Positions 1-16,300 of a stretch of DNA of 47,598 nt are shown in pieces (position 1 is the first letter of the stretch; every line of letters begins with the position of its first letter). The notes beneath the pieces are model-generated. The model saw nothing but the letters and a program-made list of their open reading frames with translations, did not search any database and had not been told where the DNA came from. Where the stretch lies: IMG/VR virus record IMGVR_UViG_651053021_000003; one strand, 5' to 3'. The position numbers and the translations under genes were made by a program. Source of the DNA: a virus. Lineage: Duplodnaviria; Heunggongvirae; Uroviricota; Caudoviricetes.

Positions 1-1284
1 TTACAGACTTCTGGACGGTTGCGCAGCTCTTACAACATGTGGTTGATCTTCTGCGGCGTCTTCCAGCGCACTTAAATCACGGTCTTTCACTTCTGGCATT
101 TTCAGCGCAGAGATTAAACCAATCACAGAATATGCCATGATCATAATGGCGATCGGATACCAGGATTCCGTCATGGTGCAGAAAATCCCCGCCAGGATAG
201 GACCAAAACCGGAAGCGATAAGACCACCAATTTCTTTAGAAATAGCCATTCGGGTAAAGCGGTTTTTACAGCCGAACATTTCTGCCATGGTAATGTTTTC
301 CAGAGCAAATAATCCCAGCACCGCACAGTTATGAATCACAATCAGTGCAACCATAATGGTGCTCGGGGCATAGCTTTTATCTACGATGATAGAAAGCATT
401 GGCCATGCCAGCACAATCGCAGAGGTATTCATAATAATATACGGGATCCGGCGACCAATTTTATCGGATAACCAACCAAGGAACGGAATGGTCATAAAGC
501 CGAGAATCGAACTGATCATCAATGCATCTGTTGGAATTGCTTTGTTAAACAATAACGTCTGCACTAAATAGCCTGCAAGGAAAGTCTGAATTAAACCGGA
601 GTTACCAGCCTGACCAAAACGCAGCCCTGTTGCCAGCCAGAAGGATTTGCTCTGGAACATGCTACCAGCAGGTGCAGGTTTTGCTGTCGGTTGGTTGCTG
701 TCGTTAACCTTCTCAAAGACCGGGCTTTCTTTCAGATTCATACGCAACCAGATAGCAAAGACCATCACGACAACGCTCGCCAGGAACGGTATACGCCATC
801 CCCACGCCAGCAGTTCCTCTTTACTGAGAATGAAGAACATAAAGGCCCAGATTGCCGTTGCGCTCAAGGTTCCGCAGTTAGTTCCCATAGCCACAAATGA
901 GGAGATAATTCCGCGCTTACCTTTTGGCGCATATTCCGCCAGCATCGTACCGGCACCGGAAATTTCCGCACCTGCACCCAACCCCTGAATAATACGCAGC
1001 GTCACCAGCAAGATGGGGGCAAAAACACCAATTTGTGCATAAGTCGGTAACACACCAATTAAGGTGGTACAGATCCCCATCATGGTGATGGTAATAAAGA
1101 GCACTTTTTTACGCCCTATTCTGTCGCCCATTTTGCCGAAAATAAATGCTCCGACAATACGTGCCACATAACCTGCACCATAGGTTCCCATTGCCAGAAT
1201 TAACGCCATTGCCGTTGATGATTCAGGAAAAAATATTTCATGAAACACTAACGCTGCGCCGAGCGAATATAACTGGAAGTCCAT
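1..1284 (-). CDS. ydfJ: MFS-family inner membrane transporter (YdfJ-like), 427 aa
   Basis: Full-length ORF with many hydrophobic segments and an MFS-like motif (GKMGDRIGRKK); stop codon at window bases 1-3; sits at left edge of prophage. Confidence 0.8.
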   Translation of the reverse strand: MDFQLYSLGAALVFHEIFFPESSTAMALILAMGTYGAGYVARIVGAFIFGKMGDRIGRKKVLFITITMMGICTTLIGVLPTYAQIGVFAPILLVTLRIIQGLGAGAEISGAGTMLAEYAPKGKRGIISSFVAMGTNCGTLSATAIWAFMFFILSKEELLAWGWRIPFLASVVVMVFAIWLRMNLKESPVFEKVNDSNQPTAKPAPAGSMFQSKSFWLATGLRFGQAGNSGLIQTFLAGYLVQTLLFNKAIPTDALMISSILGFMTIPFLGWLSDKIGRRIPYIIMNTSAIVLAWPMLSIIVDKSYAPSTIMVALIVIHNCAVLGLFALENITMAEMFGCKNRFTRMAISKEIGGLIASGFGPILAGIFCTMTESWYPIAIMIMAYSVIGLISALKMPEVKDRDLSALEDAAEDQPHVVRAAQPSRSL

Positions 1285-2069
1285 AATTCACAGGTGTTTT
1301 TTCCCATCCTGTGGTTTCCTTGGCGTTTTCTAGGTTTTTTCAGATAGTTGCATTTTTTAAAAAGCATCCTAAGTTCGATCTCAGTGTCTATCTGGGGCCT
1401 ATTTCTGTCCCATATATGCCCCAAAAAAACTCCTCAACAGATAAGTAGTTTTTTCATGGAGTTACGCGTAAAATCAATAACGGCTGGAAATCATTCAATA
1501 CTCGCACTATCGAAAAATTTACCAGCCAACCGCAGCACGTTCTTGCATAAGGCGTGTCTGCGGTTTTTCAACTATTCAGATACATCACTCCCATCACATT
1601 CATTCCTCCGCATCAAAGGCATATAGGCTATATCACCTTGATATTTTTCTTCTTCAGATAAAAACTGTTATCTATGTATACTTTTAAACCCAATCCGTGT
1701 AGAGTCTCTGCATAAGATAGTTTGCAGTTGCCACTTCAGCTTGCGCCATAAACCGCCTGATTTTTGCCGCCATCTGTTAGCATTCCTGTATACCTGAAAC
1801 GACAATGTTTATCTACGAACTTTAAGAACACCCAGGATAAAAATTGTCAACTATATCACATATAACACATTACTAATTCGAGGCTATATGAACAGCATAC
1901 TGATAATCACTTCGCTCCTTATCATATTCAGCATTTTTAGTCATGCTCTAATAAAATTAGGGATTGGCATATCCAATAACCCAGACAAAACCGATGTATA
2001 AGTCAACATATCCTGAATCAGACATACAATATCGCAATGAAAATCAATAATATTTTAAGGAATATATTC

Positions 2070-2303
2070 ATGAAATCAAAAGACACCCTAAAGTGGTTCC
2101 CTGCGCAGCTTCCTGAAGTCAGAATTATCCTAGGGGATGCTGTAGTGGAAGTAGCAAAACAGGGAAGACCTATCAATACCAGAACATTGCTTGATTACAT
2201 TGAAGGAAACATAAAGAAAAAATCATGGCTGGATAACAAAGAATTATTACAAACAGCGATATCAGTTCTTAAAGACAACCAAAATTTAAATGGTAAAATG
2301 TAA
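2070..2303 (+). CDS. ydfK: Cold-shock-induced small protein YdfK/YnaE family
   Basis: Translation MKSKDTLKWFPAQLPEV... matches recalled YdfK/YnaE; start moved to internal ATG at 2070 with AAGGAA upstream. Confidence 0.75.
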   Translation: MKSKDTLKWFPAQLPEVRIILGDAVVEVAKQGRPINTRTLLDYIEGNIKKKSWLDNKELLQTAISVLKDNQNLNGKM

Positions 2304-2619
2304 TATAATAAACTTACTTTTTTATCATTTTTCCACTTTAACAACATTTTGCTCCACTTTTCCACGACCAAACAACTTGAAATCTGGTTAAAATAACACG
2401 CAACACTATTCTTCTTCCTTGAGTCCGCCCGGAACTCGAAAAACAAACCGAGTTAAAGCTATTTTTCACAAAATCGATTTTGGGTCTCACCAAAATTACG
2501 GGGTTGCATACGCATTCGTTTATTTTCGAACGTGTACATACAAACATGCACAAAAATAATCAAAATTATTTTCTGAGATGCATTATGATATGAACACCAA
2601 TTTCGTATAGAGTCTCACT

Positions 2620-3210
2620 ATGTCTCGAATTTTTGCTTACTGTCGGATATCAACGCTGGATCAGACCACCGAAAATCAACGCCGGGAAATCGAAAGTGCA
2701 GGTTTTAAAATCAAACCTCAGCAAATAATCGAAGAACACATTAGCGGCTCAGCAGCAACCAGTGAGCGTCCTGGTTTTAACCGGTTGCTTGCTCGCCTGA
2801 AATGTGGTGATCAATTGATTGTGACAAAACTGGATCGCCTTGGTTGTAATGCAATGGATATCAGGAAAACAGTGGAACAACTGACCGAAACAGGTATCAG
2901 AGTGCATTGCTTAGCATTGGGGGGCATTGACCTGACCAGTCCAACAGGAAAAATGATGATGCAAGTAATTTCAGCAGTCGCTGAATTTGAACGAGACCTT
3001 TTACTTGAACGCACTCATTCCGGGATAGTAAGAGCCCGGGGCGCAGGGAAACGTTTTGGTCGACCACCTGTGTTAAATGAAGAACAGAAACAGGTGGTAT
3101 TCGAACGGATTAAGTCAGGTGTAAGTATAAGTGCCATTGCCCGGGAATTCAAAACCTCGCGGCAAACCATTTTAAGAGCCAAAGCAAAACTTCAGACACC
3201 TGACATATAA
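2620..3210 (+). CDS. pin: Serine recombinase / DNA invertase Pin (Gin/Hin/Cin family), 196 aa
   Basis: N-terminal resolvase catalytic domain (YCRISTLDQ) and C-terminal HTH; size typical of Pin/Gin. Confidence 0.9.
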
Positions 3211-3437
3211 AAAATAATCTCGGTGTGAGATGCCTTACGTCTTCCAAGCCCCCTTCCTTGCCGTAAATGGAAAGATACATCTAATTATAGAATTTATATG
3301 TTTTACCCTACGGCAGTGCTGGCCATTCAATATCCTGTGCAGTTGACGTATCAACACGGTTCAGCAACACCCGATACTTCTTCCAGGCTTCCCGCAACGA
3401 GGTTTCTTCCTCCGTTGCATATACAGCTCACCTTTTT

Positions 3438-3746
3438 TCACCCACGATTAACCAACAGCCAGACCAGCAGACACGCCACCACCGGCACAGCAAAATCCAT
3501 CAGGCTTGCCACATCCCACGCGCGCGGATCAAAACCGCCCCACCACGGCATATTCATTCGCTTGCCATGCCCGAACATTTCAATCCAGCGATATTCTGCC
3601 TGGGTGTGTTCACGCGCAATGAAGAACGTACAACCGGCTATCGCCCCGTAAGCCCAGTTCCCGGTAAAAAGACCAATCAGTAGCTGCGCAGCCACAGCAC
3701 AAAGCGCATGAAGGAAAGGTGTTATATCCATTTTCATCCTACCCAA
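3438..3746 (-). CDS. Hypothetical small membrane protein (102 aa)
   Basis: ORF with 2-3 hydrophobic helices located between pin and the tail-fibre genes; no recognised family. Confidence 0.4.
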   Translation of the reverse strand: MGRMKMDITPFLHALCAVAAQLLIGLFTGNWAYGAIAGCTFFIAREHTQAEYRWIEMFGHGKRMNMPWWGGFDPRAWDVASLMDFAVPVVACLLVWLLVNRG

Positions 3747-3773
3747 TAAAACGGGGCGCTCGGCCCCTTAATA

Positions 3774-4814
3774 TTATTTAGACGCAAGCGCCGCCTCAAT
3801 TGCAGATAATCTTTGTCTTAATTCTGCGTTTTCTTCTTCCAGTGCTGTTATTCTGTCGTCTGACTCTCTGGCTACCTGAACAAGCAAGCCAGTAACACCA
3901 GAATAATCTACTGTGTAATAACGTTCACCTTCTTCACCTTCCGATCCGCTTGCACCGTCCTGATATTTCATTGCGGAACCTACAACTTCTGGGATTGCTT
4001 CCAGAGCTTCCTGTGCAATGACACCAGCATAGGGCATACCGTTTTCTTTAAGCGTGTATGTATAGCCGTTCATTTTACGGATGCGGTCGGTTGCATTATC
4101 GATCACCTGAATGTTGTCTTTCAGATCCCGGTCGGAATGCTGGTTAAATGCGGTGGCATGACATGCACCATTAACGCTTAACATATAGGTGTTATCGGTA
4201 TTTTTCTGCGCATAGAACATATAAGCGCCACCATCAACACCGACTTCATAAACAACAGGACGGCTGGTGTTGCCCCACAATTGAGCAGTAACACCAGCAT
4301 AAGCGGTTCCCTGTGTGTTTAATGTCATGGTTGACCCATGATTGGCATATTTGATCTGTAATGTGTCGGTGTAATCAAATTTAATAAGCGCGTTACTTCC
4401 ACGCTTGCTGTATGACATAAGGCAGTTACCCATTTTGAGGTATCCGCTGTCACCGGGAAAAATCATCGTACCGCCATAAAGGTTGGTAAAGTCCCAGCAA
4501 ATGTTTGTCCCGTTATCGTTCAGGTTAAGGCGCGCCATTGCGTTACCTGGACTGTCTATCCATTTTTTGAGGTATAGTTCGCAATACGCATCCTCAACAC
4601 CTGCCGTCCTGTGAGTTGAGCGGAGTTTTCTCCCAAATATAGCTCCGCTAGTTGGCAATACCTGCTGATACCATGAAGCAGACCAGTCACCAACGATTTC
4701 ATCTTTGCTGTCTACATATAATTTTGTTGCGTAGCTTCCTTGATCGTTTTTTAATTTGCTAACGTCGGATTTTAGCGTTTTGATGTCATCAGGAATTACT
4801 GTCGATGTAGCCAT
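3774..4814 (-). CDS. Tail fibre / receptor-binding protein with C-terminal intramolecular-chaperone (peptidase S74-like) domain
   Basis: C-terminal ~110 aa (SDRDLKDNI...GVIAQE...VDYSGVTGLLVQ...coiled coil...ALASK) resembles self-cleaving chaperone domains of phage fibres. Confidence 0.55.
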   Translation of the reverse strand: MATSTVIPDDIKTLKSDVSKLKNDQGSYATKLYVDSKDEIVGDWSASWYQQVLPTSGAIFGRKLRSTHRTAGVEDAYCELYLKKWIDSPGNAMARLNLNDNGTNICWDFTNLYGGTMIFPGDSGYLKMGNCLMSYSKRGSNALIKFDYTDTLQIKYANHGSTMTLNTQGTAYAGVTAQLWGNTSRPVVYEVGVDGGAYMFYAQKNTDNTYMLSVNGACHATAFNQHSDRDLKDNIQVIDNATDRIRKMNGYTYTLKENGMPYAGVIAQEALEAIPEVVGSAMKYQDGASGSEGEEGERYYTVDYSGVTGLLVQVARESDDRITALEEENAELRQRLSAIEAALASK

Positions 4815-4823
4815 TTTTCTTCC

Positions 4824-5105
4824 TCACATCCAGCCACGAAGTTGATGCTCAACAGCAACCACGTATTCATCGAATAATGACGATATTTGCGAATCATTAA
4901 TGATGCGCACGTTTACAAAATATCCGTCTTCCTTAACACATACCGGTTCGCCATCTTCAGTCAGTTCTCCGGTTTCTTTGTACACGTTACCTATCACGTC
5001 AATAAGAATATCATCCTGCATCGACTCGTCATCATAATAGCCAGTGCTATCCATAAAGGCCGAAAAGTCGGCCCTGTCGGCAAATTTGAGTGTTAAATCT
5101 TTCAT
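4824..5105 (-). CDS. Putative tail-fibre assembly chaperone / accessory protein (93 aa)
   Basis: Acidic small ORF whose start overlaps the stf stop codon (translational coupling); position analogous to tfa. Confidence 0.4.
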   Translation of the reverse strand: MKDLTLKFADRADFSAFMDSTGYYDDESMQDDILIDVIGNVYKETGELTEDGEPVCVKEDGYFVNVRIINDSQISSLFDEYVVAVEHQLRGWM

Positions 5106-7477
5106 TAGATTGACTCCCCCACCTGAGCATCAGTCAATGCCTTGTGCCATATTCTGAAATTCCTGACATGACCAAATAAATGACGTAACCCGGCTGTAGT
5201 CTGGCCTCCAATACGGATAATTGCGGTGTTCTGAATACAGGACCATGTGGTTTTTGTTTCGCTGGATATATGCCCGTTACTTACTGAGCACGTAGACTGC
5301 TCTGACTTTACACGCATCCCCATAACCATTTTTTCAAGCGATGCGTTTTCGTTTACCCGTCTGTTAGCTCCTCCAATATCGCAATAAGGAAATCCGTCGT
5401 AATCTGTTGAACGACCGAAGCCAAGAATAATAGCCGCTCCGGTTTGATGACCGCCGGTATCAAAAACACGTGGCGCTGCATTTGGCGTTTTATACCAGTT
5501 CTTATGTACCTCACAAAGAACCGTAAAAGGAAGATTATAAAGATTATTCTTAATTGGAACTGTAACTATATCGCTTGCGCGGGTCGCCGCCGTCGCTCCT
5601 GATATAATAAAAGATGATACACAAGGCCCATCTTCTACTTGTGGGGTGGCCAGATAAATATAGTCACCAGATACGGTTGCCCCGCTCTGCTTAGGAGAAT
5701 ACTGTATCTGAGAGCCTATTTTTAACTCCCCATCAATTGCCTGAATTGTTGCCTCTGCAAAAATCCATCCGGTAGCTTCGTCCTTTCTGACTCTCGCTGT
5801 AATCCTTGAGGCAGCACCGCCTGTCATATTAATTTCAAGCGTTTGTGTATCAATATACGCATCACCAAGAAAAGTTGTTGCGCTACCGTCATATTTATCA
5901 AACCGGATACGCAACCTTACCTGCAGTTCTGTTTTAAAACGACATGAGGTTGTCACGTGTTTATTATCGCCTGAGACATCAACTGACTTTGTTGCAGCAA
6001 TTGATGCCATATTAATGGCTGAGGTTTGCCCAATCAGAGAATCGTTGCAGACAAACTTTCCATAGGTAAAACCAAAATTATCCGTCCCTGTTTCGGGCAC
6101 ATCCATATTTGACGATCGCCCCCAACTGGCAGGGCTTTCCGAATTGAGCATGTAGTTTGTTCTTTGCCCCTCAATAAGCAGGCCATCACGTTCAAATCGT
6201 GGCTCGTCAATGGCAGCCTCTGTCAGCACACCAGATTTGTTAATATAGGTTGCTTTCGATGCACGTTTAAACTTAACAATCTTGTCGCCAGGCATCGTTA
6301 TTTCATCGTCACCAATAACAATTTTTTTATATGACGGCGAAAAGCCCGTAATCATATCCAGCGAATCGTTAAATGGTATCCACACATCAGGCAGCGGCTG
6401 TAAGACATATTTATACGGCTCCGCAGCCTGGCTTGCGTACTCTCTGGCTGCATCTTCGCTTGCTTTAGCTGCCGTCTGGCTTGCTGCCGATGCTTTCGCT
6501 GAGTTCGCAGCCGCTGTTTCGCTCACCTTTGCGTTGGTTTCACTGGTTTTTGCTGCTTTTTGACTGTTAGCTGATGCAGTGGCAGAAGCAGCCGCCGCGC
6601 TTGCAGAACTGGCTGCGGCACTCTCGCTTTGAGCCGCTGCATCCTGACTGCTTTTCGCCGCAGTTTCACTGGCTTTGGCATTCGTTTCGCTGGTCTTCGC
6701 TGCCGTCTGGCTGGACTTTGCGTTAGTTTCACTCGTCTTCGCAGCTTTCTGGCTGTTAGCCGTAGCAGTTGCTGATCCAGCTGCTGAAGTCGCAGAACCG
6801 GCTGCCGCGCTCTCGCTTTGGGCTGCTGCAACCTGGCTGTTTTTTGCCGCAGTTTCACTGGCTTTAGCATTCGTTTCGCTGGTCTTCGCTGCCGTCTGGC
6901 TGGACTTTGCGTTGGTTTCGCTCGTCTTTGCGGCTGTCTCGCTATTTTTCGCGTTGGTTTCTGATTTTTTAGCTGCTGTTGCGGAGTTTGCCGATGCAGT
7001 CTGCGAGGCCGCTGCCGCCTGTGCGCTGTTAGCTGCATTCGTTTCTGAGGTTTTCGCCGCGTTCTTCGATGATGCCGCTGCAGTTTCGGATTTCTTTGCC
7101 GCCGCTGCGCTCTGAGAGGCGGCTTCAGCGTTGCGTGCCGCTTCTTCCACCATTTCCTCAAAACGACGCAATGCCTCCGGCATGACATCATCTTCCGTCA
7201 TGGCACCGAGAAAATCATTCAGCGTACCTGGTCTGGAACCTTCATAGACGGTAATGGTTCCGGCATGTGAAGGCGGAAAACCTTCAACAAGCAGGATAAC
7301 GCTGTACTGGCCATACTCAACATCCATGCTGTAACGCCCGGCTTCATCCGGATTTTCAGAGGCCACCGTGTTCACCAGTACCGTGGTGCTGTTACGCTTT
7401 GCCTTCAGTTGAATAGTGCAGTTCTGTATTGGTTTTCCCGCACCATCTTTCAGCACACCTGAAATCTGTACTGCCAT
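5105..7477 (-). CDS. stf: Side tail fibre protein Stf (lambda Stf-like N-terminus, collagen-like repeat shaft, LamG-like C-terminal domain)
   Basis: N-terminus MAVQISGVLKDGAGKPIQNCTIQLKAKRN matches lambda Stf; ATG at 7477 with GGAG upstream; Ala/Ser/Thr-rich repeats; C-terminal lectin-like segment. Confidence 0.85.
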   Translation of the reverse strand: MAVQISGVLKDGAGKPIQNCTIQLKAKRNSTTVLVNTVASENPDEAGRYSMDVEYGQYSVILLVEGFPPSHAGTITVYEGSRPGTLNDFLGAMTEDDVMPEALRRFEEMVEEAARNAEAASQSAAAAKKSETAAASSKNAAKTSETNAANSAQAAAASQTASANSATAAKKSETNAKNSETAAKTSETNAKSSQTAAKTSETNAKASETAAKNSQVAAAQSESAAAGSATSAAGSATATANSQKAAKTSETNAKSSQTAAKTSETNAKASETAAKSSQDAAAQSESAAASSASAAAASATASANSQKAAKTSETNAKVSETAAANSAKASAASQTAAKASEDAAREYASQAAEPYKYVLQPLPDVWIPFNDSLDMITGFSPSYKKIVIGDDEITMPGDKIVKFKRASKATYINKSGVLTEAAIDEPRFERDGLLIEGQRTNYMLNSESPASWGRSSNMDVPETGTDNFGFTYGKFVCNDSLIGQTSAINMASIAATKSVDVSGDNKHVTTSCRFKTELQVRLRIRFDKYDGSATTFLGDAYIDTQTLEINMTGGAASRITARVRKDEATGWIFAEATIQAIDGELKIGSQIQYSPKQSGATVSGDYIYLATPQVEDGPCVSSFIISGATAATRASDIVTVPIKNNLYNLPFTVLCEVHKNWYKTPNAAPRVFDTGGHQTGAAIILGFGRSTDYDGFPYCDIGGANRRVNENASLEKMVMGMRVKSEQSTCSVSNGHISSETKTTWSCIQNTAIIRIGGQTTAGLRHLFGHVRNFRIWHKALTDAQVGESI
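6480..6960 (-). repeat. In-frame tandem repeats (~170-230 nt units) encoding AAKTSETNAKSSQT-type shaft repeats of Stf
   Basis: Near-identical DNA blocks (e.g. gcagtttcactggctttggcattcgtttcgctggtcttcgctgccgtctggctggactttgcg) occur twice; protein shows duplicated ~57-aa units. Confidence 0.7.
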
Positions 7478-7491
7478 ACTCACTCCACAAA

Positions 7492-7516
7492 TAAAAAAGG
7501 CGCCATTTCTGGCGCC
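7492..7516 (-). terminator. Rho-independent terminator-like hairpin between J and stf
   Basis: GGCGCC-atttct-GGCGCC stem-loop followed on the minus strand by a T-run. Confidence 0.55.
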
Positions 7517-7537
7517 CGTATTGGGGTTATAAATATT

Positions 7538-10500
7538 TCAACGGATACTGATACCGGAAGCAGCTTTTTTGGTCACAATCACCGTACAGTCTGTGATGTT
7601 ACCTGCGCCCTGATTGCCTTTCTGGAAAATCTTAAACTCCAGAGTGACGTTACCACCACCACTCGGCATATCAATAACCGCACTGTAACTACCGGGAATG
7701 GCTCCTTTAGTTTCTCTGGATGCGATTAATACGCCATTTTTGCGAACTTCAAAACCATAACCCGTGTATCGCGTACCTCCCGGGTTATTACCGCTCCCCG
7801 GATCGTCATACGCCACACCGTTAAAAATAATGGGCGGAATAATGATTTGGCGGTCAAAGTTATGATCATCGTAAATGGTGACTGTAACCGTCCCGTTTGG
7901 TGTTTCCGTGTTACCCCACGTACCAGCCTTTTTCGGGAATGATTTGGATACAGTTTTAACGAAGTCACCTCTGACCTGGTTCGCCTCCAGCATGCCCTTA
8001 ATCGTACAGTTTTCATTTACCGTGACATTATTGAGCGTCCCGGAGTTCGCATTCACGTTACCGCTGATATCAGCATTTCTCGCCGTCAGCCGCCCGTCCG
8101 GTGTCAGGGAAAATGCCGGAGGATTACCGCCGCTGGTAATGGTGGGAGCCGTCAGATACTTCAGGAACACTTCGTTCATGAATATCTGGTTGCCCTGCGC
8201 CACAAACATCGGCGTTTCATTCCCGTTTGCCGGGTCAATAAACGCGATACGGTTAGCGGCAACCAGGAACTGGCTCAGTTTGCCTTCCTCCGTATCCTCC
8301 ATGCTGAGGCCAAGCCCCGCGACATAATGTTTGCCGTCTTTGGTCTGCTCAATTTTGACGCCCCACATGGCATTCCATTTATCGTTGGCGTCCTTCCACT
8401 CTTTCGAAAACTCCTCCAGTCTGCTGGCGTTATCCTCCGTCAGCTCGACTTTTTCCAGCAGCTCCTTGCCGAGATGGGATTCGGTTATCTTGCCTTTGAA
8501 AAAATCCAGGTAACCTTCCGCATCATCGCTCGCCCGACCGACGGCCTCCACGAATGCCGATTTGCCAACGGTGTTCACACTGCGGATATAAAAGTAATAA
8601 TCATGGCCCGGTTTGATATTGATACTGGCGGCTATCCAGTACAGCGCCGTACCAAGATAGCGGGCTGTGGTTTCAACCTGCCTGATATCGGTAATCCGCT
8701 TTTCCGAGAACCAGAACTCAAACTGTACCGTCGGATCATAAATCGCAAGATGCGGCGTGGCGGTTATCTGAAAATAGCCCGGCGTCAGCTCAATCCTCGA
8801 CGGTGCTGCCGGTGCGGCAATCCGGAACGATACCGACGCCGGATCGCCCTGCTGTCCCCACGCATTTACCGCCCGGACTGTCAGCGTGTACCGCCCCAGC
8901 GCCAGTTGCATGAAGCGGTATGTGGTTTCCGTCGTCCGGGCCGTGCTGACCAGCCGCTCACTGCCGTCATCCGCTGCCACGGTCAGGCGAAGCATAAAGC
9001 TCACCCCCTTCACCACCTTCGGCGTGTCCCAGCGCGCCAGCACCTGATATTCCCCGCTGTCTGCGGTGACTTCTGCGGTCAGGTGTTGCACTGCTGGCGG
9101 CGTGACACCATTCACCGTGCCGCTCTGGTCGCCGTCAAAGTACGCCCCGTTATCCACGATGGCCTCTTTTTCCGGTACATGCTGCACGGCGGTGATGGCA
9201 TACGTGCCGTCGTCGTTCTCACGGATACTCACGCAGCGGAACAGGCGCTGGCGCAGCGTCGGCAGCTTCAGCCCCCACACGCTGTATTCAGCAACACCGT
9301 CAGGAACACGGCTCACTTTCACCTTCACGCCGTCGGTGACGGACTGAACCTCCACGCTGACCGGATTGCCACTTCCGTCAACCAGGCTTATCAGCGTGGT
9401 ACCGGAGGATGGCAGCGTGATTTCACGGTCGAGCGTCAGCGTCCGGGTCTGGCTGTTCACCGCCAGCACACGACCACCGGTGCTGATACCGGCATAGTCA
9501 TCATCGCAGATTTCAATAACATCGCCCGGTACATGGCGAAGCCCTTCTGCGCCGACGCTGAAATCCACGGTCTGCGTTTCCAGCAGTTCTGTTTTAATCA
9601 GCCACAGCCCGGCGCGGTGTGCCTGCCCCCGGCTGGTACAGCCAAAAGCATCCATCTTCGTGACGTTACGACCGTAACGGGCAATGGCCTGCGTATCCTC
9701 CACAAGCTCTGTCGCCGTCTCCCAGCCGTTGTTCGGGTCAATCCAGTTCACCTCAACGGCATTATGGCGGTCCTTGAGGGCGCTGAAGCTGTAGCGGAAC
9801 GGCGCGCCATCATCCGGCATCACCACATTACTGCGGTTATAGGTCCACACCTTATCCGACGGTCGGTCCTGCACGAACGTCAGCGTCTGCCCGTTCCATA
9901 CCGGCATACAGCGCATCGCCGAGCAGAAATCACTGAGAACATCCCACGCCTTACGCTGTGTGGTCAGGTAAGCGTTACAGGTGATGCGCGGCTCCGTGCC
10001 GCCAGAGCCGTCCGGCACCGACTGGTCGCAATTCTGGCCGATGACATACAGCGCCCATTTGTCCACATCCGCCGCACCAAGACGTTTACCCATGCCGTAG
10101 CGCGGGTGGGTCAGCATATCCCACAGACACCAGGCCATGTTGTTGCTGTATGCTGGCTTAAACGTTCCGTCCCAGATACCGCTGTATTGCCGCGTCTGCG
10201 GGTTATAGTTCGACGGCACCTGCAGAATGCGCCCGCGAAGATGATAATTACGGCTCACCTGCTGGCTGCCGAACTGTTCCGAGTCCACCTGCACGCCGAC
10301 CAGTGCCGTGTTCGGGTAGCACTGTTTCACATCGATGATTTCGGTGTATGACGACCAGAGCGTTTTGTTCTGCAGCTGGTCTGTGGTGCTGTCCGGTGTC
10401 ATCCTGCGCATCCGGATATTAAACGGGCGCGGCGGCAGGTTACCCACCACCACCGATGCCAGATACTGTGAGGTGGTTTTGCCTTTAATGGTGATGTCTT

Positions 10501-10951
10501 TTTCCGTCACCCAGCCACCGTTACGCTGTATCTGAACCAGCAGGCGGACTTCCGACGGATTCCGGTCCCCCTTTGAGGTGGTTTCCACCAGTGCCTGCAC
10601 ACCGAAGGTCAGGCGCAGACGGTCGATGTTTGCAGACGTGATGGTCCGGGTAATCGGCGTGTCGTACTTCACTTCCGTACCCAGCACCGTCTCGGAGCCG
10701 GAGGATTCAAATCCCTCCGGCGGTGTCTGCTCCTGCTCACCTGCCCGGAAAACCACCGTGACACCGGAGATATTGGTATTCCCCTCACTGTCCAGCACTG
10801 GCGTACTGTTCAGCAGCACGCTTTTTAATCCGTCCACCGGACCTTCAACCGGCCCTTCACTGATGGCATCGATCACACTCAGCAACTGCGTGGATTTCAG
10901 GTTGTCCTTCGCTTCGCGCGGGGTATGCCCCTTACTGCTGCCTTTACCCAT
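7538..10951 (-). CDS. J: Host specificity / central tail fibre protein J (1137 aa)
   Basis: Length and sequence architecture match lambda gpJ (fibronectin-like repeats, C-terminal receptor-binding region). Confidence 0.95.
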
Positions 10952-13342: not shown

Positions 13343-16300
13343 TACCGATATGCTCCACTTAACCGACCACCATCACGGGCCTGCTGTTGCATAAAGTCCG
13401 CTGCCGCTTTTTTCCCAAGGTCATAAACCACCTTCAGGGCAGCCGGACCTATCTGCCCGTTCGTGCCATCGTTATTGATCTCGATGTTGTACTGCGGGGC
13501 AAACATCGCCATACCTGAACCACCAATATCCGCCACAACCCCCAGCTTACCGTCAGCACCACGACGCAGTGGCAGAATGGCTTCAGGTCCAGCTTCCCCC
13601 ATCACACCCGCGCCTTTTGCAAAAGCAAAAAACGTCGGACGGTTAACCACCGTGCCACTGTAACAACTCAAATCAGCAGACTGATAAATCCCCCCATTGG
13701 CATTCAGGGAAAGGCTGCTGAGATCAAATCCCAGTACACTGCCAATCCCTTTTATCGATTTCATCATGGTTGCCTGCGCCAGGATTTTCGCCATATCTGA
13801 CAGCACAGAAGAGGTGAAGGATTTGAAATTGAGTTTGCCGGTAGTGACAAAAGTTGCCAGGCCATTTCCCATGTTGCTGAAGGCTGACGAGAACACCTGT
13901 TCTGCTGTTCCTGCCGTATTATCTGCATCCACGGTAAAATCCTGAAATGCACGCAGGACTCCGTTTTTCCAGTTACCCTGCACAACTTCAAGCTGTTGCC
14001 AGTAACGGCGATTCTCATTCAGTTGTCGGTTCAGGCTCTCCGTCAGCGCCTGCTCGGCCTTTCTGTAGTCATCCGTGTTATATGTCCCTTTCTGCTCACT
14101 ATCCCGCCTCAACTGCTCCAGCTGTTGCTGGTATTTCTGACGAAGACTCAGTTGTACCTGATATCGCTGCCGCTGCTGATCACCCATACCCACCGTGGCG
14201 ATATCCAGATTATGTTGTTGACGCTGAGCACGCTCTTCTTCAGCCAGTTGACTGGTCAGATGAATTGTTTTTTTCTTCAGCTCGTTGAGTGCCGTCTGTT
14301 TCTGAAGCTCCTGCTGTTTTACATCCAGCAGCGTCAGTGCCTGAATCAGTTCATCTTTACGGGCCAGCACACTCTTTTCATCTTCCGTCAGTTTTTTCCC
14401 GTCCAGGTCGCTGATGCGCTGCTGCAGAGCCAGAAGCTGTTTATGCGCTTCTGTCATCCTTTCCGTGGCAATGCCTGCTGACTGTCTGGCAGCAGCAATC
14501 TGTCCTTCCACCTGTGCCTGTTGCTGACTGTACTGCAGCAATAACCGGGTGGCCTCATCATTACGGGTTTCGCGTGTTTTTTTCTTACCGGATGCCAGGG
14601 CTTTCTCGTAACGTTCATTTTCACGTTGTATCGCCGCATCCCTGACAGTCTGATCGGCGTACTGCATGGCATTAATACGCGCAATTTCACGCTGATGTCG
14701 TGCTGCTTCCATTTCATTCATCCGGTTCAGTGCAGCATTTTCAGCATTACGGCGTTTCTGTTGCTCCTGATAATTCCGCTCTGCCTGCTCTTTTGCATCC
14801 TGCAAATCCTTCTGGCGTTTTTTTTCCTGAAGCTCGTTAAGACGCTGCTGATCGTACTCAACCTGAGAAGATGATGCCGTCCAGGGGAGTCTTTTCGCCC
14901 GCGACACTTTCTCCTGTAAAGCGGAAATCTGTTCATCCAGCGAGTCTTCACGACCAATATTCATGGCCGCATCCCAGAAACGACTCCATAAATCAGACAG
15001 ATACTTCAGCGTACTGCCCAGCGCATTGAGGTTATTATCAATATCCGCAGTACGCCGACCGGTTTCCTCTGCCAGTGCAGACATGGCTATCCGTGCCGCA
15101 TCACTGGACCGCCCCTGTTCCCCAAGGACGCGTATCTGCTCAAGCTGAGTGGCAGTAAGAAAATGCAGCTCATTGTCCAGAGCCTTCGCGGCATTTACAG
15201 GATCATCCTTCAGCCGCTTAAACTGACTTATGGTATCGCTGACCGACTGGCCAACCGATCGCTCCATCTGTGCGGCAGCTCTCGCCACCATACCGATATC
15301 GTTTCCACGAAATGCACCACTCCCCACCACCTGAGCCAGCGCACCGGCTGCAGCATGTTGCGTGATACCATTCCCGGAAATAGCACGACTGAGCGTCCAC
15401 AGCTGCCCGGCAGTGACTCCGGCATAATGCCCCGTCAGCGACAGCTGGCGGTTAAATTCTTCCCCCTCCTTCTGACCGTCATACCAGGCTTTACCCAGAC
15501 CATAGACAGCTGCGGCAATACCGCCAATAACCCCGCCCAGCATCATGCCTTTCGGTGACATCAGTGTGTCTATCCATCCGGCACGGTTAGCCAGCGTTAT
15601 CCCGGATCCCCTCAGCGCCCCTAAATTGCCGCGGGCCAGTTCACCTATCAGAACGCCTATCTCCTGGCGGGCCGCTGCACTTTTCAGACCCAGCGAATGC
15701 GTGGCTTTTCCTGCCCGCTCCATTTTGCGGATATACACTTCTGCAGCACTGCTTACCCCCAGCTGGGCAGCCCTGGCACGAAGCAACTCAGAAGAAGAAA
15801 GATTCTGGCGGGTTGCCTGCTCTTTAAGCTGACGGATAAACGCCACTTTCTGTCGGGTAGCCTCTTCCTCAGCCTGTGTAAGAACACGGGTTTTCGCCGT
15901 AACCTCAGAAATCAGCGCCAGATAATCCTGCTGACCAATCCCGCCACTGTTTCTGGCCTGTCGGATCTGCTGCTGAATACGCTGTAATTCCTGCAGCCCC
16001 GCACTGGCCTGTTTCACACTGTCAATCTGACGATAAAACGCAGCAGCCGCTTTATCCTGAGCCTCCGCCAGAGCCATGGCCTGCGCCTGTTCCTCGCGCA
16101 TTTTCTGGCTCAGTGCCTCCATGCGCTGGCGGGTTTTCTCCACCTCGCGGGCCATGCGTTCATGAGCCTGTGCGTTCTTCTCCACCGTCTGCGCATGGAC
16201 GGATGCGGCTGTTGCAGCCGAAGAAGCCGCCTGCGTTGTCTGCCGGGCGGCCTGAGTCTGACGCTCCATAAAACGCTGCATACGGGCAGAAGACCGTTCT

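Follow-up and report, generated by a model that had tools for sequence, protein, structure and literature searches.

Small serine recombinases encoded beside tail-fibre genes are characteristic of Din inversion systems such as Gin/G of Mu, Cin/C of P1, Pin/P of e14 and that of the prophage Cartapus of E. coli LF82. The recombinases PinR (Rac) and PinQ (Qin) of E. coli K-12 carry a name that was given on weak similarity (38% to Din invertases), and the lack of a local invertible segment next to them has already been published (PMC12529663). In the Tn3 family, including gamma-delta and non-autonomous Tn3 derivatives, the gene of a small serine recombinase is located downstream of a three-subsite res, in elements that are bounded by 38-bp GGGG...TAAG repeats and a 5-bp target duplication. 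The key catalytic set of the Tn3 resolvase comprises Y6, R8, S10, D36, R68 and R71, and its recombination is abolished in the mutants R71A or R71K (PMC2794168). With respect to tail fibres, phage 21 encodes an Stf that is followed by a protein of ~92 aa, together with a small membrane protein and a 3' scar of tfa. The fibres K1F endosialidase, T5 pb1 and S16 gp37 end in a Peptidase_S74 domain in which Ser and Lys are conserved, and in branched T5-like fibres, as in LtfA/LtfB of DT57C, a short separate fibre protein is encoded beside a longer one.

The window investigated in this study, a stretch of 47,598 nucleotides (47.6 kb), constitutes the prophage Tritos of E. coli LF82, which is inserted in ydfJ. 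This gene is the Qin-type integration site. The product of its pin gene, referred to here as PinQ, shares the accession WP_000086527.1 with K-12 PinR and is the identical protein. As in K-12, where the ynfT and ydfK pair also adjoins pinR in Rac, ynfT/ynaM and ydfK are followed by pin, which is convergent with tfa and stf. In contrast to K-12, where pin of Rac is accompanied by an ordinary stf-tfa pair, Tritos contains a phage-21-type cassette in place of the canonical Stf C-terminus and tfa, of which a 3' scar is left, and it is an active phage rather than a cryptic remnant. The original prediction regarded pin as a tail-fibre invertase that is either orphaned or locked, or that acts on non-canonical sites. 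Instead, we consider it likely that pin encodes a homologue of TnpR-type resolvases within a decayed Tn3-type mini-transposon, next to which a fibre cassette has been swapped in, and that the locus holds no inversion switch; pin was probably never a switch of tail fibres. The features of the region are:

1-1284, minus strand: ydfJ', host MFS transporter gene cut short by the prophage (PGAP annotation of LF82, ORF list)
1888-2001, plus strand: ynfT, cargo gene at the prophage end (PGAP)
2070-2303, plus strand: ydfK, cold-shock gene, cargo gene at the prophage end (PGAP)
2415-2419: TTCCT, left copy of a putative 5-bp target-site duplication
2420-2457, plus strand: left 38-bp Tn3-family terminal inverted repeat (IR), degenerate (26/38 identical to the IncF IR)
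2507-2609, plus strand: putative res site, decayed (alignments A1 and A2 with relatives)
2507-2532: remnant of res subsite I
2547-2578: res subsite II
2584-2589: -10-like TATGAT
2590-2609: res subsite III
2620-3210, plus strand: pin (PinQ/PinR, 196 aa; Resolvase and HTH_7 domains)
3219-3253, minus strand: right terminal IR, degenerate with a 3-nt deletion (aligns to the intact right IncF IR)
3254-3258: TTCCT, right copy of the putative 5-bp target-site duplication
3308-3418, minus strand: tfa 3' remnant, 111 bp (PGAP pseudogene; absent from the original prediction)
3438-3746, minus strand: membrane protein, 102 aa (97 aa in PGAP; phrog_1443)
3774-4814, minus strand: short fibre protein, 346 aa (phrog_4563 and other tail-fibre PHROGs)
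4824-5105, minus strand: 93-aa protein, candidate chaperone or adaptor of Stf (phrog_1361)
5105-7483, minus strand: side tail fibre Stf, 792 aa (phage_tail_N)
7538-10951, minus strand: tail tip protein J, as context (ORF list, PGAP)

The absence of an invertible segment, which had been noted by eye, is confirmed by our searches. No crossover site of the type AAACC-NN-GGTTT was detected between 2000 and 9500 (0 matches at <=2 mismatches), and the 19 matches found at the same threshold in the whole window compare to 25 expected by chance. Similarly, the repeat of the e14 P segment has no match at <=3 mismatches anywhere in the 47.6 kb, and the best inverted-repeat pairs in 1800-8000 (17-31 nt, 70-94% match) show no positional logic. 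Between 3300 and 7483 all credible ORFs are on the minus strand, as originally proposed, without opposite-strand copies of fibre genes or tfa, whose remnant is co-linear with the fibre operon; the sole plus-strand ORF between pin and stf (3298-3651, 117 aa) has no family match. As a positive control, the same searches were run on Cartapus, where they revealed a 75-nt inverted-repeat pair with AAACC..GGTTT-like cores that flanks tfa/tfa' beside a Gin homologue. Tritos thus differs from Din systems in its lack of crossover sites, inverted repeats and opposite-strand copies, and also in its gene orientation, as pin and the fibre operon converge, in contrast to the Din invertase gene of Cartapus, which has the same direction as the fibre operon there.

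The premise that pin belongs to the Din family of tail-fibre invertases is not borne out by its relatives. PinQ shares 38% identity with the Gin/Pin homologue of Cartapus, a Din-type invertase, and 60-85% with recombinases at the tnpR position of Tn3-family elements and plasmids. A relative from Shewanella (77%) belongs to a transposon of 9.4 kb, which features perfect 38-bp IRs, the target-site duplication TAGAT and a divergent DDE_Tnp_Tn3 transposase gene (E 1.4e-148), one from Budvicia (77%) is located between 38-bp IRs with the duplication AACAA, one from Parasedimentitalea (62%) is divergent from the N-terminus of a DUF4158 transposase, and one from IncF plasmids (84%) is contained in an 852-bp IR-res-tnpR-IR element. 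The nearest relatives are found in transposons and plasmids and not beside fibre genes. By raw similarity PinQ is closer to Gin (E 2.7e-29) than to the classical resolvases of gamma-delta/Tn3, to which its identity is low (E about 1e-22), so that its assignment as resolvase is founded on the genomic context and the architecture of the sites and not on its distance to these proteins.

This context is reflected in the flanks of the gene. Positions 2420-3253 of the window (834 bp) align end to end, with both IRs included, with the 852-bp IncF element. The left IR obtains the highest PWM score on both strands of the 47.6 kb (18.8, while 20 shuffles reached at most 12.3), and it is independently aligned to the plasmid IR by MAFFT, whereas the right IR is the fourth best ungapped match in the window, with a score of 9.3 that is alone not significant. 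The poor likeness of both IR remnants to each other and the absence of the target duplication at the IncF copies count against a transposon. A survey of 5,426 E. coli genomes revealed no empty insertion site, and the 834-bp element, with pin as its only gene, contains no Tn3-type DDE transposase. Compared to Tn3-family transposons, the element of Tritos thus lacks a transposase, its IRs and res are decayed, and the equivalent of Arg 71 is a Cys. That pin is located in such a decayed IR-res-tnpR-IR element, with its 5-bp duplication of the target, speaks against an orphaned or locked invertase, and in a mini-transposon that bears a resolvase the absence of an invertible segment is to be expected.

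The relatives of pin share a three-subsite res with the half-site TGTCCGAAA and the Tn3-like order I-II-III, containing at matching positions TGTCCGAAA-N8-TTTCGGACA and an N14 dyad, and the dyads are intact in 6 relatives. The corresponding region of the window is homologous and alignable, with half-sites that are mismatched at 7/18 and 5/18 positions (our count, alignment A2) and that lack key positions, particularly so in subsite I, where the crossover takes place. Across the 47.6 kb of the window, no dyad TGTCCGAAA-N8/N14-TTTCGGACA was detected at <=3 mismatches. The recognition helix of PinQ is essentially the same as in relatives that have TGTCCGAAA and not TTCTCCCAAACC as half-site, and its predicted half-site differs from that of Din systems. 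The non-canonical sites suggested for the enzyme would in this family be dyads of the res type, which are decayed upstream of pin and intact nowhere in the window.

Changes have also affected the protein itself. PinQ retains Y7, R9, S11 and R73, and a Glu at the position of D36 is shared with the plasmid and Shewanella relatives inspected. Its Cys 76 aligns with the catalytic Arg 71 of the Tn3/gamma-delta resolvase, a position that, in PinQ and its 120 nearest 90%-identity clusters, is occupied by Arg in 115 and by Cys in 6 cases, with all carriers of Cys belonging to the prophage lineage. Extrapolating from R71A and R71K of the Tn3 resolvase, we infer that this exchange would leave PinQ at best a weak recombinase, and that it is probably retained as a DNA-binding or autoregulatory protein. 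The dN/dS ratio of pin amounts to 0.15 in comparison to the plasmid copy and to 0.37 in comparison to a divergent prophage allele within the Cys lineage. Thousands of genomes carry an intact pin ORF, and frameshifted copies also exist (L022, L023). Between two prophage alleles, the region upstream of pin is 94% conserved compared to 84% identity at third codon positions, which, together with a dN/dS below 1, indicates that pin is more than a dead gene.

Among the alternative explanations, PinQ might act in trans as invertase on the segment of another element, which would be P of e14 in K-12 and the tail-fibre segment of Cartapus in LF82, and, if true, would imply a control of fibre or defence proteins elsewhere in the cell. 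When K-12 PinQ was over-produced, inversion of the P segment of e14 reportedly rose from ~30% to 88%, which led to the description of PinQ as an active invertase, and a PinQ-dependent enrichment of the inverted segment was observed together with resistance to T2 (Kirigo et al. 2025, PMC12529663). This points to a certain activity on Din-type sites in trans. In accordance, Cartapus carries e14-type sites GCTTCTCCCAAACCAA that are 15/16 identical to the quoted e14 repeat and inverted with respect to each other (L032 13353-13368 and 14870-14885), and the pin ORF is held under purifying selection. However, Cartapus and e14 each encode a Din invertase of their own, the published support derives from over-expression with subsequent phage selection, and deletion of pinE in K-12 locks the P segment despite the presence of pinQ and pinR (PMC12529663), arguing against PinQ being sufficient at native levels. 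In light of these findings, and of a recognition helix of the TGTCCGAAA type in a protein that has replaced its catalytic Arg, we regard inversion in trans by PinQ as unlikely.

A role as functional phage resolvase, where PinQ would resolve multimers of the Tritos genome or a plasmid-like intermediate at the res-like site that precedes its gene, with site and protein having co-evolved towards a new specificity, would be in line with the conservation of this region and with the intact ORF in thousands of genomes. We consider it very improbable, in view of a recognition helix that is essentially unchanged from users of TGTCCGAAA while the half-sites, chiefly those of subsite I, have decayed, and of the lost catalytic Arg. 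Lambdoid phages are not known to require a resolvase. Finally, the degenerate Din system of the original prediction, where an ancestral stf-tfa/tfa'-stf' segment would have lost one half and its crossover sites to leave a true Pin behind, can draw on the proximity of pin to tail-fibre genes with a tfa fragment in between and on its weak overall similarity to Gin/Pin, but it is contradicted by the convergent orientation of pin and the absence of crossover-site remnants, and, being largely refuted by a tfa fragment that is co-linear with K-12 tfaR on the strand of stf and has no inverted second copy, by the homology of the flanks to Tn3-type IRs and res, and by closest relatives in transposons and plasmids, it can practically be dismissed.

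Next to the mini-transposon, which we favour as the origin of pin, the fibre cassette is separable from pin, as illustrated by phage 2G7b, which carries the cassette without pin, and by Rac of K-12, where pin occurs without this cassette. Stf consists of an N-terminal domain of the lambda type, an Ala/Ser-rich repeat shaft and a distal domain of the phage-21 type. Its proposed lambda-like N-terminus, the part nearest the tail, is well supported by matches to phage_tail_N (Pfam E 1.8e-67) and to the tail-fibre N-terminus of PDB 9e7m (E 1.7e-49), whereas for the proposed lectin-like C-terminus there is a weak match to Laminin_G_3 (E 0.005) under the Pfam cut-off. A GTA_spike_fiber domain covers aa 436-636. 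Homology to K-12 StfR is confined to the first 123 aa, and the overall identity to Stf of phage 21 is 54%, with a nearly identical distal domain (roughly aa 360-660) and a difference in the last ~130 aa.

The 93-aa protein is coupled to stf, as had been suggested, with its start codon overlapping the stf stop by 1 nt. It shares 54% identity with the ~92-aa homologue of phage 21, its family appears confined to Escherichia, and an AF2 model combined with a fold search was uninformative. The 102-aa ORF, without a match in Pfam, NCBIfam or PADLOC, is a constant companion of the phage-21-type Stf, and its prediction as membrane protein agrees with the annotation of the homologue in phage 21. Downstream of stf there is no intact gene of the Tfa assembly chaperone but only the 111-bp remnant, which is contiguous with full-length tfaR of K-12 (98.7% identity) and found as the same scar in phages 2G7b and 21.

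Phage 21 contains neither pin nor the gene of the 346-aa protein, and the latter is thus an optional insertion in the module. The assumption that this protein is related to fibres and ends in an intramolecular chaperone has proven correct, based on a Peptidase_S74 domain at aa 227-278 (Pfam E 4.8e-14), assignment to tail-fibre PHROGs and similarity to S16 gp37 (PDB 6f45, E 1.4e-3). Its residues S226 and K231, which we take to be the cleavage dyad described for endosialidases, are nearly invariant in 32 homologues. In contrast to S74 and branched fibres, there is no recognisable N-terminal anchor domain, and an attachment to Stf or the virion is putative. Both AF2 models were of low confidence and fold searches returned no useful match for the fibre apparatus. 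A branched or dual receptor-binding apparatus, as originally put forward, fits the data and is plausible.

The late-operon end of the lambdoid prophage Tritos would consequently combine three independent modules side by side, none of which is expected to be a DNA-inversion switch. An ancestral phage of the Rac/Qin type would have received, in the intergenic DNA that separated its tfa from ydfK, a non-autonomous IR-res-tnpR-IR element, whose insertion created the 5-bp duplication. The TnpR-type enzyme of this element is predicted to act at the res just upstream of its own gene and not at crossover sites around fibre genes. Decay has reached both terminal repeats and each of the three res subsites in the prophage lineage, and one of six key catalytic residues (Tn3 R71) has become a Cys, while the ORF stays intact under relaxed purifying selection. 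The phage-21-type module, with the Stf distal domain, the 93-aa companion and the membrane protein, would have been exchanged in, leaving the tfa scar, presumably with the conserved 5' end of stf and the 3' end of tfa serving as sites of homologous recombination, and the gene of the 346-aa S74 fibre would have been added inside this module. Such exchange in a locus without inversion system suggests that variation in host range originates here from the replacement of cassettes and not from site-specific inversion. As a tentative extension, for which we see a modest chance, PinQ/PinR may be a catalytically disabled Tn3-type resolvase that is kept by lambdoid prophages as a DNA-binding factor, which does not cut and instead modulates recombination or expression elsewhere. 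If true, the published phenotype of PinQ would become compatible with the presence of Cys 76 and with the locked P segment in pinE mutants, and the disabled protein could bias Din-type inversion catalysed by PinE or the Cartapus invertase.

The window is identical (100%) to the chromosome of E. coli LF82 over positions 1300-7600 and to phage Tritos (OV696610) over positions 2300-7600. Tritos is a lambda-like prophage of the Crohn's-disease isolate LF82 that is spontaneously induced (PMC9928086), and it occupies the Qin position at ydfJ. The following features define the locus:

2620-3210, + strand: pin, with Resolvase and HTH_7 domains
3308-3418, - strand: 111 bp left of the 3′ end of a tail-fibre assembly gene (tfa)
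3438-3746, - strand: 102-aa membrane protein
3774-4814, - strand: 346-aa protein with a Peptidase_S74 domain
4824-5105, - strand: 93-aa ORF whose start overlaps the stop codon of stf
5105-7483, - strand: Stf, with a lambda-type N-terminal domain

The arrangement of the reading frames between pin and stf agrees with the original prediction, except for the tfa remnant, which had been overlooked. PADLOC returned no matches for the pin, 102-aa, 346-aa and 93-aa proteins and YdfK, and scans of 1900-3800 for sigma-70 promoters and terminators yielded weak consensus matches only. The Ala/Ser-rich repeat region of Stf (6280-7200) displays an extreme AT skew (about -0.56) and produces spurious long ORFs on the opposite strand as well as in the other frames (e.g. 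6523-7191 and 6675-7115).

The absence of crossover sites, previously judged by eye, is borne out by systematic searches, in which AAACC-NN-GGTTT at up to two mismatches was found nowhere between 2000 and 9500 and, across the whole window, less often than expected by chance. The e14 P-segment repeat was not detected in the window with up to three mismatches allowed, and an inverted-repeat check of 1800-8000 revealed only short, weak repeats. Applied to the P2-like LF82 prophage Cartapus, identical tools identified two 75-nt repeats in inverted orientation, whose cores resemble AAACC..GGTTT, along with e14-type sites; these bracket tfa and tfa′ and are adjoined by a Gin homologue, thus illustrating that the negative result in the window is not a problem of sensitivity. 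Most likely, no invertible segment was ever present at the pin-stf locus of Tritos. LF82 itself holds a canonical Din-type invertible tail-fibre segment in Cartapus (L032, 13341-14897, with the invertase at 14953-15519), whose e14-like sites (GCTTCTCCCAAACCAA) would be the sole plausible target in trans of Tritos PinQ in this strain. An 18-nt inverted repeat within the 346-aa gene (4255-4272 / 4595-4612, 17/18 or 94% complementary), which is also found in E. ruysiae at 16/18, was rejected as an intragenic inverton and is regarded as a coincidence, since flipping would create stop codons and the inverted form was present in 0 of 709 genomes carrying the gene.

The origin of pin is reflected in its nearest relatives outside of Escherichia prophages, none of which reside beside fibre genes in the fetched loci. 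A relative from Shewanella (77% identity) is contained within a 9.4-kb element with perfect 38-bp end repeats (GGGGTCCGCTTGGAAAACGGAAAATATCCTACGCTAAG), a 5-bp duplication (TAGAT) and a Tn3-type transposase gene in divergent orientation (DDE_Tnp_Tn3, E 1.4e-148). Its counterpart in Budvicia (77%) is located between repeats of the same kind with the duplication AACAA, that of Parasedimentitalea (62%) is divergent from the N-terminus of a DUF4158 transposase, and on IncF plasmids a relative of 84% protein identity makes up the whole gene content of an 852-bp element, whose 38-bp ends are intact. Upstream of the gene, the relatives share a res-like region consisting of a TGTCCGAAA-N8-TTTCGGACA dyad, another dyad of the N14 type and a third site, which is shorter and overlaps a TATAAT box. 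The three follow the I-II-III order of the subsites in Tn3 res.

Two other loci display rearrangements of such genes. In Erwinia oleae (L016, 1268-2652), two head-to-head PinQ-like genes of about 80% DNA identity, separated by a 200-bp spacer that contains res-type dyads, constitute an inverted duplication of the tnpR-res module. In Photorhabdus cinerea (L014, 4770-5379), a 38-bp Tn3-type repeat cuts a PinQ homologue at about codon 161, on a 5.4-kb contig with perfect 127-nt inverted repeats at its ends. The pinQ genes of metagenome bins assigned to Alistipes, Draconibacterium and Caldithrix (L004, L007 and L008) match that of E. coli at 99-100% identity and most likely reflect contamination of these bins with E. 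coli.

The plasmid element aligns end to end with window positions 2405-3270. The left end in the window (2420-2457) is identical to the plasmid repeat at 26 of 38 positions and is the top match to the repeat profile on both strands of the whole window (18.8 bits, with a maximum of 12.3 in 20 shuffles), the right end (3219-3253) corresponds to the right plasmid repeat with a 3-nt deletion, and TTCCT directly follows beyond each end. The res region is homologous to that of the relatives but decayed, with 7/18 and 5/18 half-site mismatches in subsites I and II as counted on alignment A2, and a res-type dyad with up to three mismatches is found nowhere in the entire 47.6 kb. An empty site, with ydfK joined to tfa without pin, was encountered in none of 5,426 genomes; the insertion is thus not confirmable by this route and, judged from the same absence, would be old and fixed. 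The non-coding DNA upstream of pin (2456-2619) is 94% identical to that of a divergent prophage allele (L031, 1-164), compared to only 84% at the third codon positions of the same two alleles, which hints at either constraint on the decayed res/promoter or recent recombination.

Among six residues that are crucial in Tn3 resolvase (Olorunniji and Stark, PMC2794168), five are conserved or conservatively replaced in the pin product, the exception being R71, which aligns with Cys76. Within the query and its 120 nearest 90%-identity clusters, 115 contain Arg at this position; the remaining six have Cys and comprise the query itself along with PinQ/PinR prophage-lineage clusters, among them a divergent allele that also adjoins tfa. 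The Arg-bearing proteins P0004-P0007 (91-93% identical to PinQ), which look like chimeras of plasmid-type and PinQ sequences on short contigs, were excluded as evidence. The recognition helix (S/T-R-Q-T-I-L-R) is the same as in relatives using TGTCCGAAA. A dN/dS of 0.15 between pin and the plasmid copy and of 0.37 between two Cys-bearing prophage alleles, where third codon positions are conserved least, together with the existence of frameshifted copies, indicate that pin is still under selection, though relaxed. Instead of the orphaned or locked tail-fibre invertase initially proposed, the Tn3-type relatives, the decayed end repeats and res, and Cys76 suggest that pin is probably the remnant of a resolvase. 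PinQ/PinR would have poor or no catalytic activity and would probably be retained for DNA binding, which is the weakest step of our argument.

The orphan status of pin is known already. Its product and K-12 PinR share the same accession, and Rac and Qin have the same gene order, with ynfT-ydfK-pin facing tfa-stf in convergent orientation. Kirigo et al. 2025 (PMC12529663) reported only 38% identity between PinQ and PinE, found no inversions in Qin or Rac across E. coli genomes, and named Tritos among the carriers. Their proposal of e14 P-segment inversion in trans by over-produced PinQ partly conflicts with a catalytically impaired resolvase, which in turn fits their observation that deletion of pinE locks this segment although pinQ and pinR are intact. 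The literature searched contained no mention of an origin of PinQ/PinR from a Tn3 mini-element, of a decayed res or of the Arg-to-Cys change. Two papers on antimicrobial-resistance genomics reportedly name 'pinR' together with Tn3. In JGI and NCBI sources, PinQ homologues of other genera go by names like 'putative DNA-invertase from lambdoid prophage Rac', which suggests that the label spreads through annotation transfer.

The fibre genes have a separate history. Homology of Tritos Stf to K-12 StfR is confined to its first 123 residues, and the distal domain is of the phage-21 type, with near identity over roughly residues 360-660. Beyond this domain, phage 21 encodes a 92-aa homologue of the 93-aa protein (54% identity) and the same membrane protein but lacks the 346-aa gene, whereas phage 2G7b contains all four genes of the cassette and lacks pin. 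The downstream boundary is in all three cases the same short tfa 3′ fragment (window 3308-3420, aligned with phage loci L033 and L034 in A5), beyond which the neighbours differ (pin in Tritos, a methyltransferase in 2G7b and sitD in phage 21), thus illustrating that cassette and pin are independent. This fragment looks like a reusable recombination joint, and the cassette probably arrived through recombination at the conserved 5′ end of stf and the 3′ end of tfa. The description of the Stf terminus as lectin-like finds some correspondence in a sub-threshold match to Laminin_G_3, which is surpassed by that of residues 436-636 (window 5576-6178) to the NCBIfam domain 'GTA head spike fiber' (E 3.3e-13). 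The latter unexpectedly ties a lambdoid side fibre to the head spikes of gene-transfer agents.

The predicted relationship of the 346-aa protein to fibres is confirmed by matches to Peptidase_S74 (E 4.8e-14) and S16 gp37 (E 1.4e-3), by PHROGs matches of its C-terminal half to the ends of long side tail fibres and by a nearly invariant Ser226...Lys231. No informative homologues were retrieved for the N-terminal half of this protein or for the 93-aa and membrane proteins, those of the 93-aa protein being near-identical Escherichia proteins only. AF2 models of the 346-aa and 93-aa proteins are of low confidence (pLDDT 60.6 and 62.3), and their comparison to PDB and BFVD by Foldseek gave no match with E <1e-3, the best being T4 gp34 and uncharacterised phage proteins. 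A branched fibre or a dual receptor-binding apparatus, as initially suggested, would be a reasonable hypothesis.

Collectively, the initial observation is real, the puzzle of pin dissolves once it is viewed as a resolvase relic, and the locus is an ordinary mosaic. It exemplifies how the host-range modules of lambdoid phages vary through the exchange of cassettes at the conserved ends of stf and tfa, and it points to an uncharacterised type of Stf that is accompanied by the 93-aa protein, a membrane protein and, optionally, an S74 fibre. About 95% of the complete E. coli genomes searched match a pinQ/pinR-like sequence, which is usually annotated as 'DNA invertase from lambdoid prophage Rac', and an anti-phage mechanism has been built on this invertase reading (Kirigo et al. 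2025, PMC12529663). If pin is a decayed Tn3-type resolvase module without the key catalytic Arg, the missing invertible segment would require no explanation of its own, one could understand why transposon resolvases are automatically labelled 'pinR' and vice versa, and the proposed inversion in trans would call for a direct biochemical test. The Tn3 origin, the decayed res and the Arg-to-Cys change are of interest chiefly for the challenge they pose to the current invertase reading of a gene that is nearly universal in E. coli.
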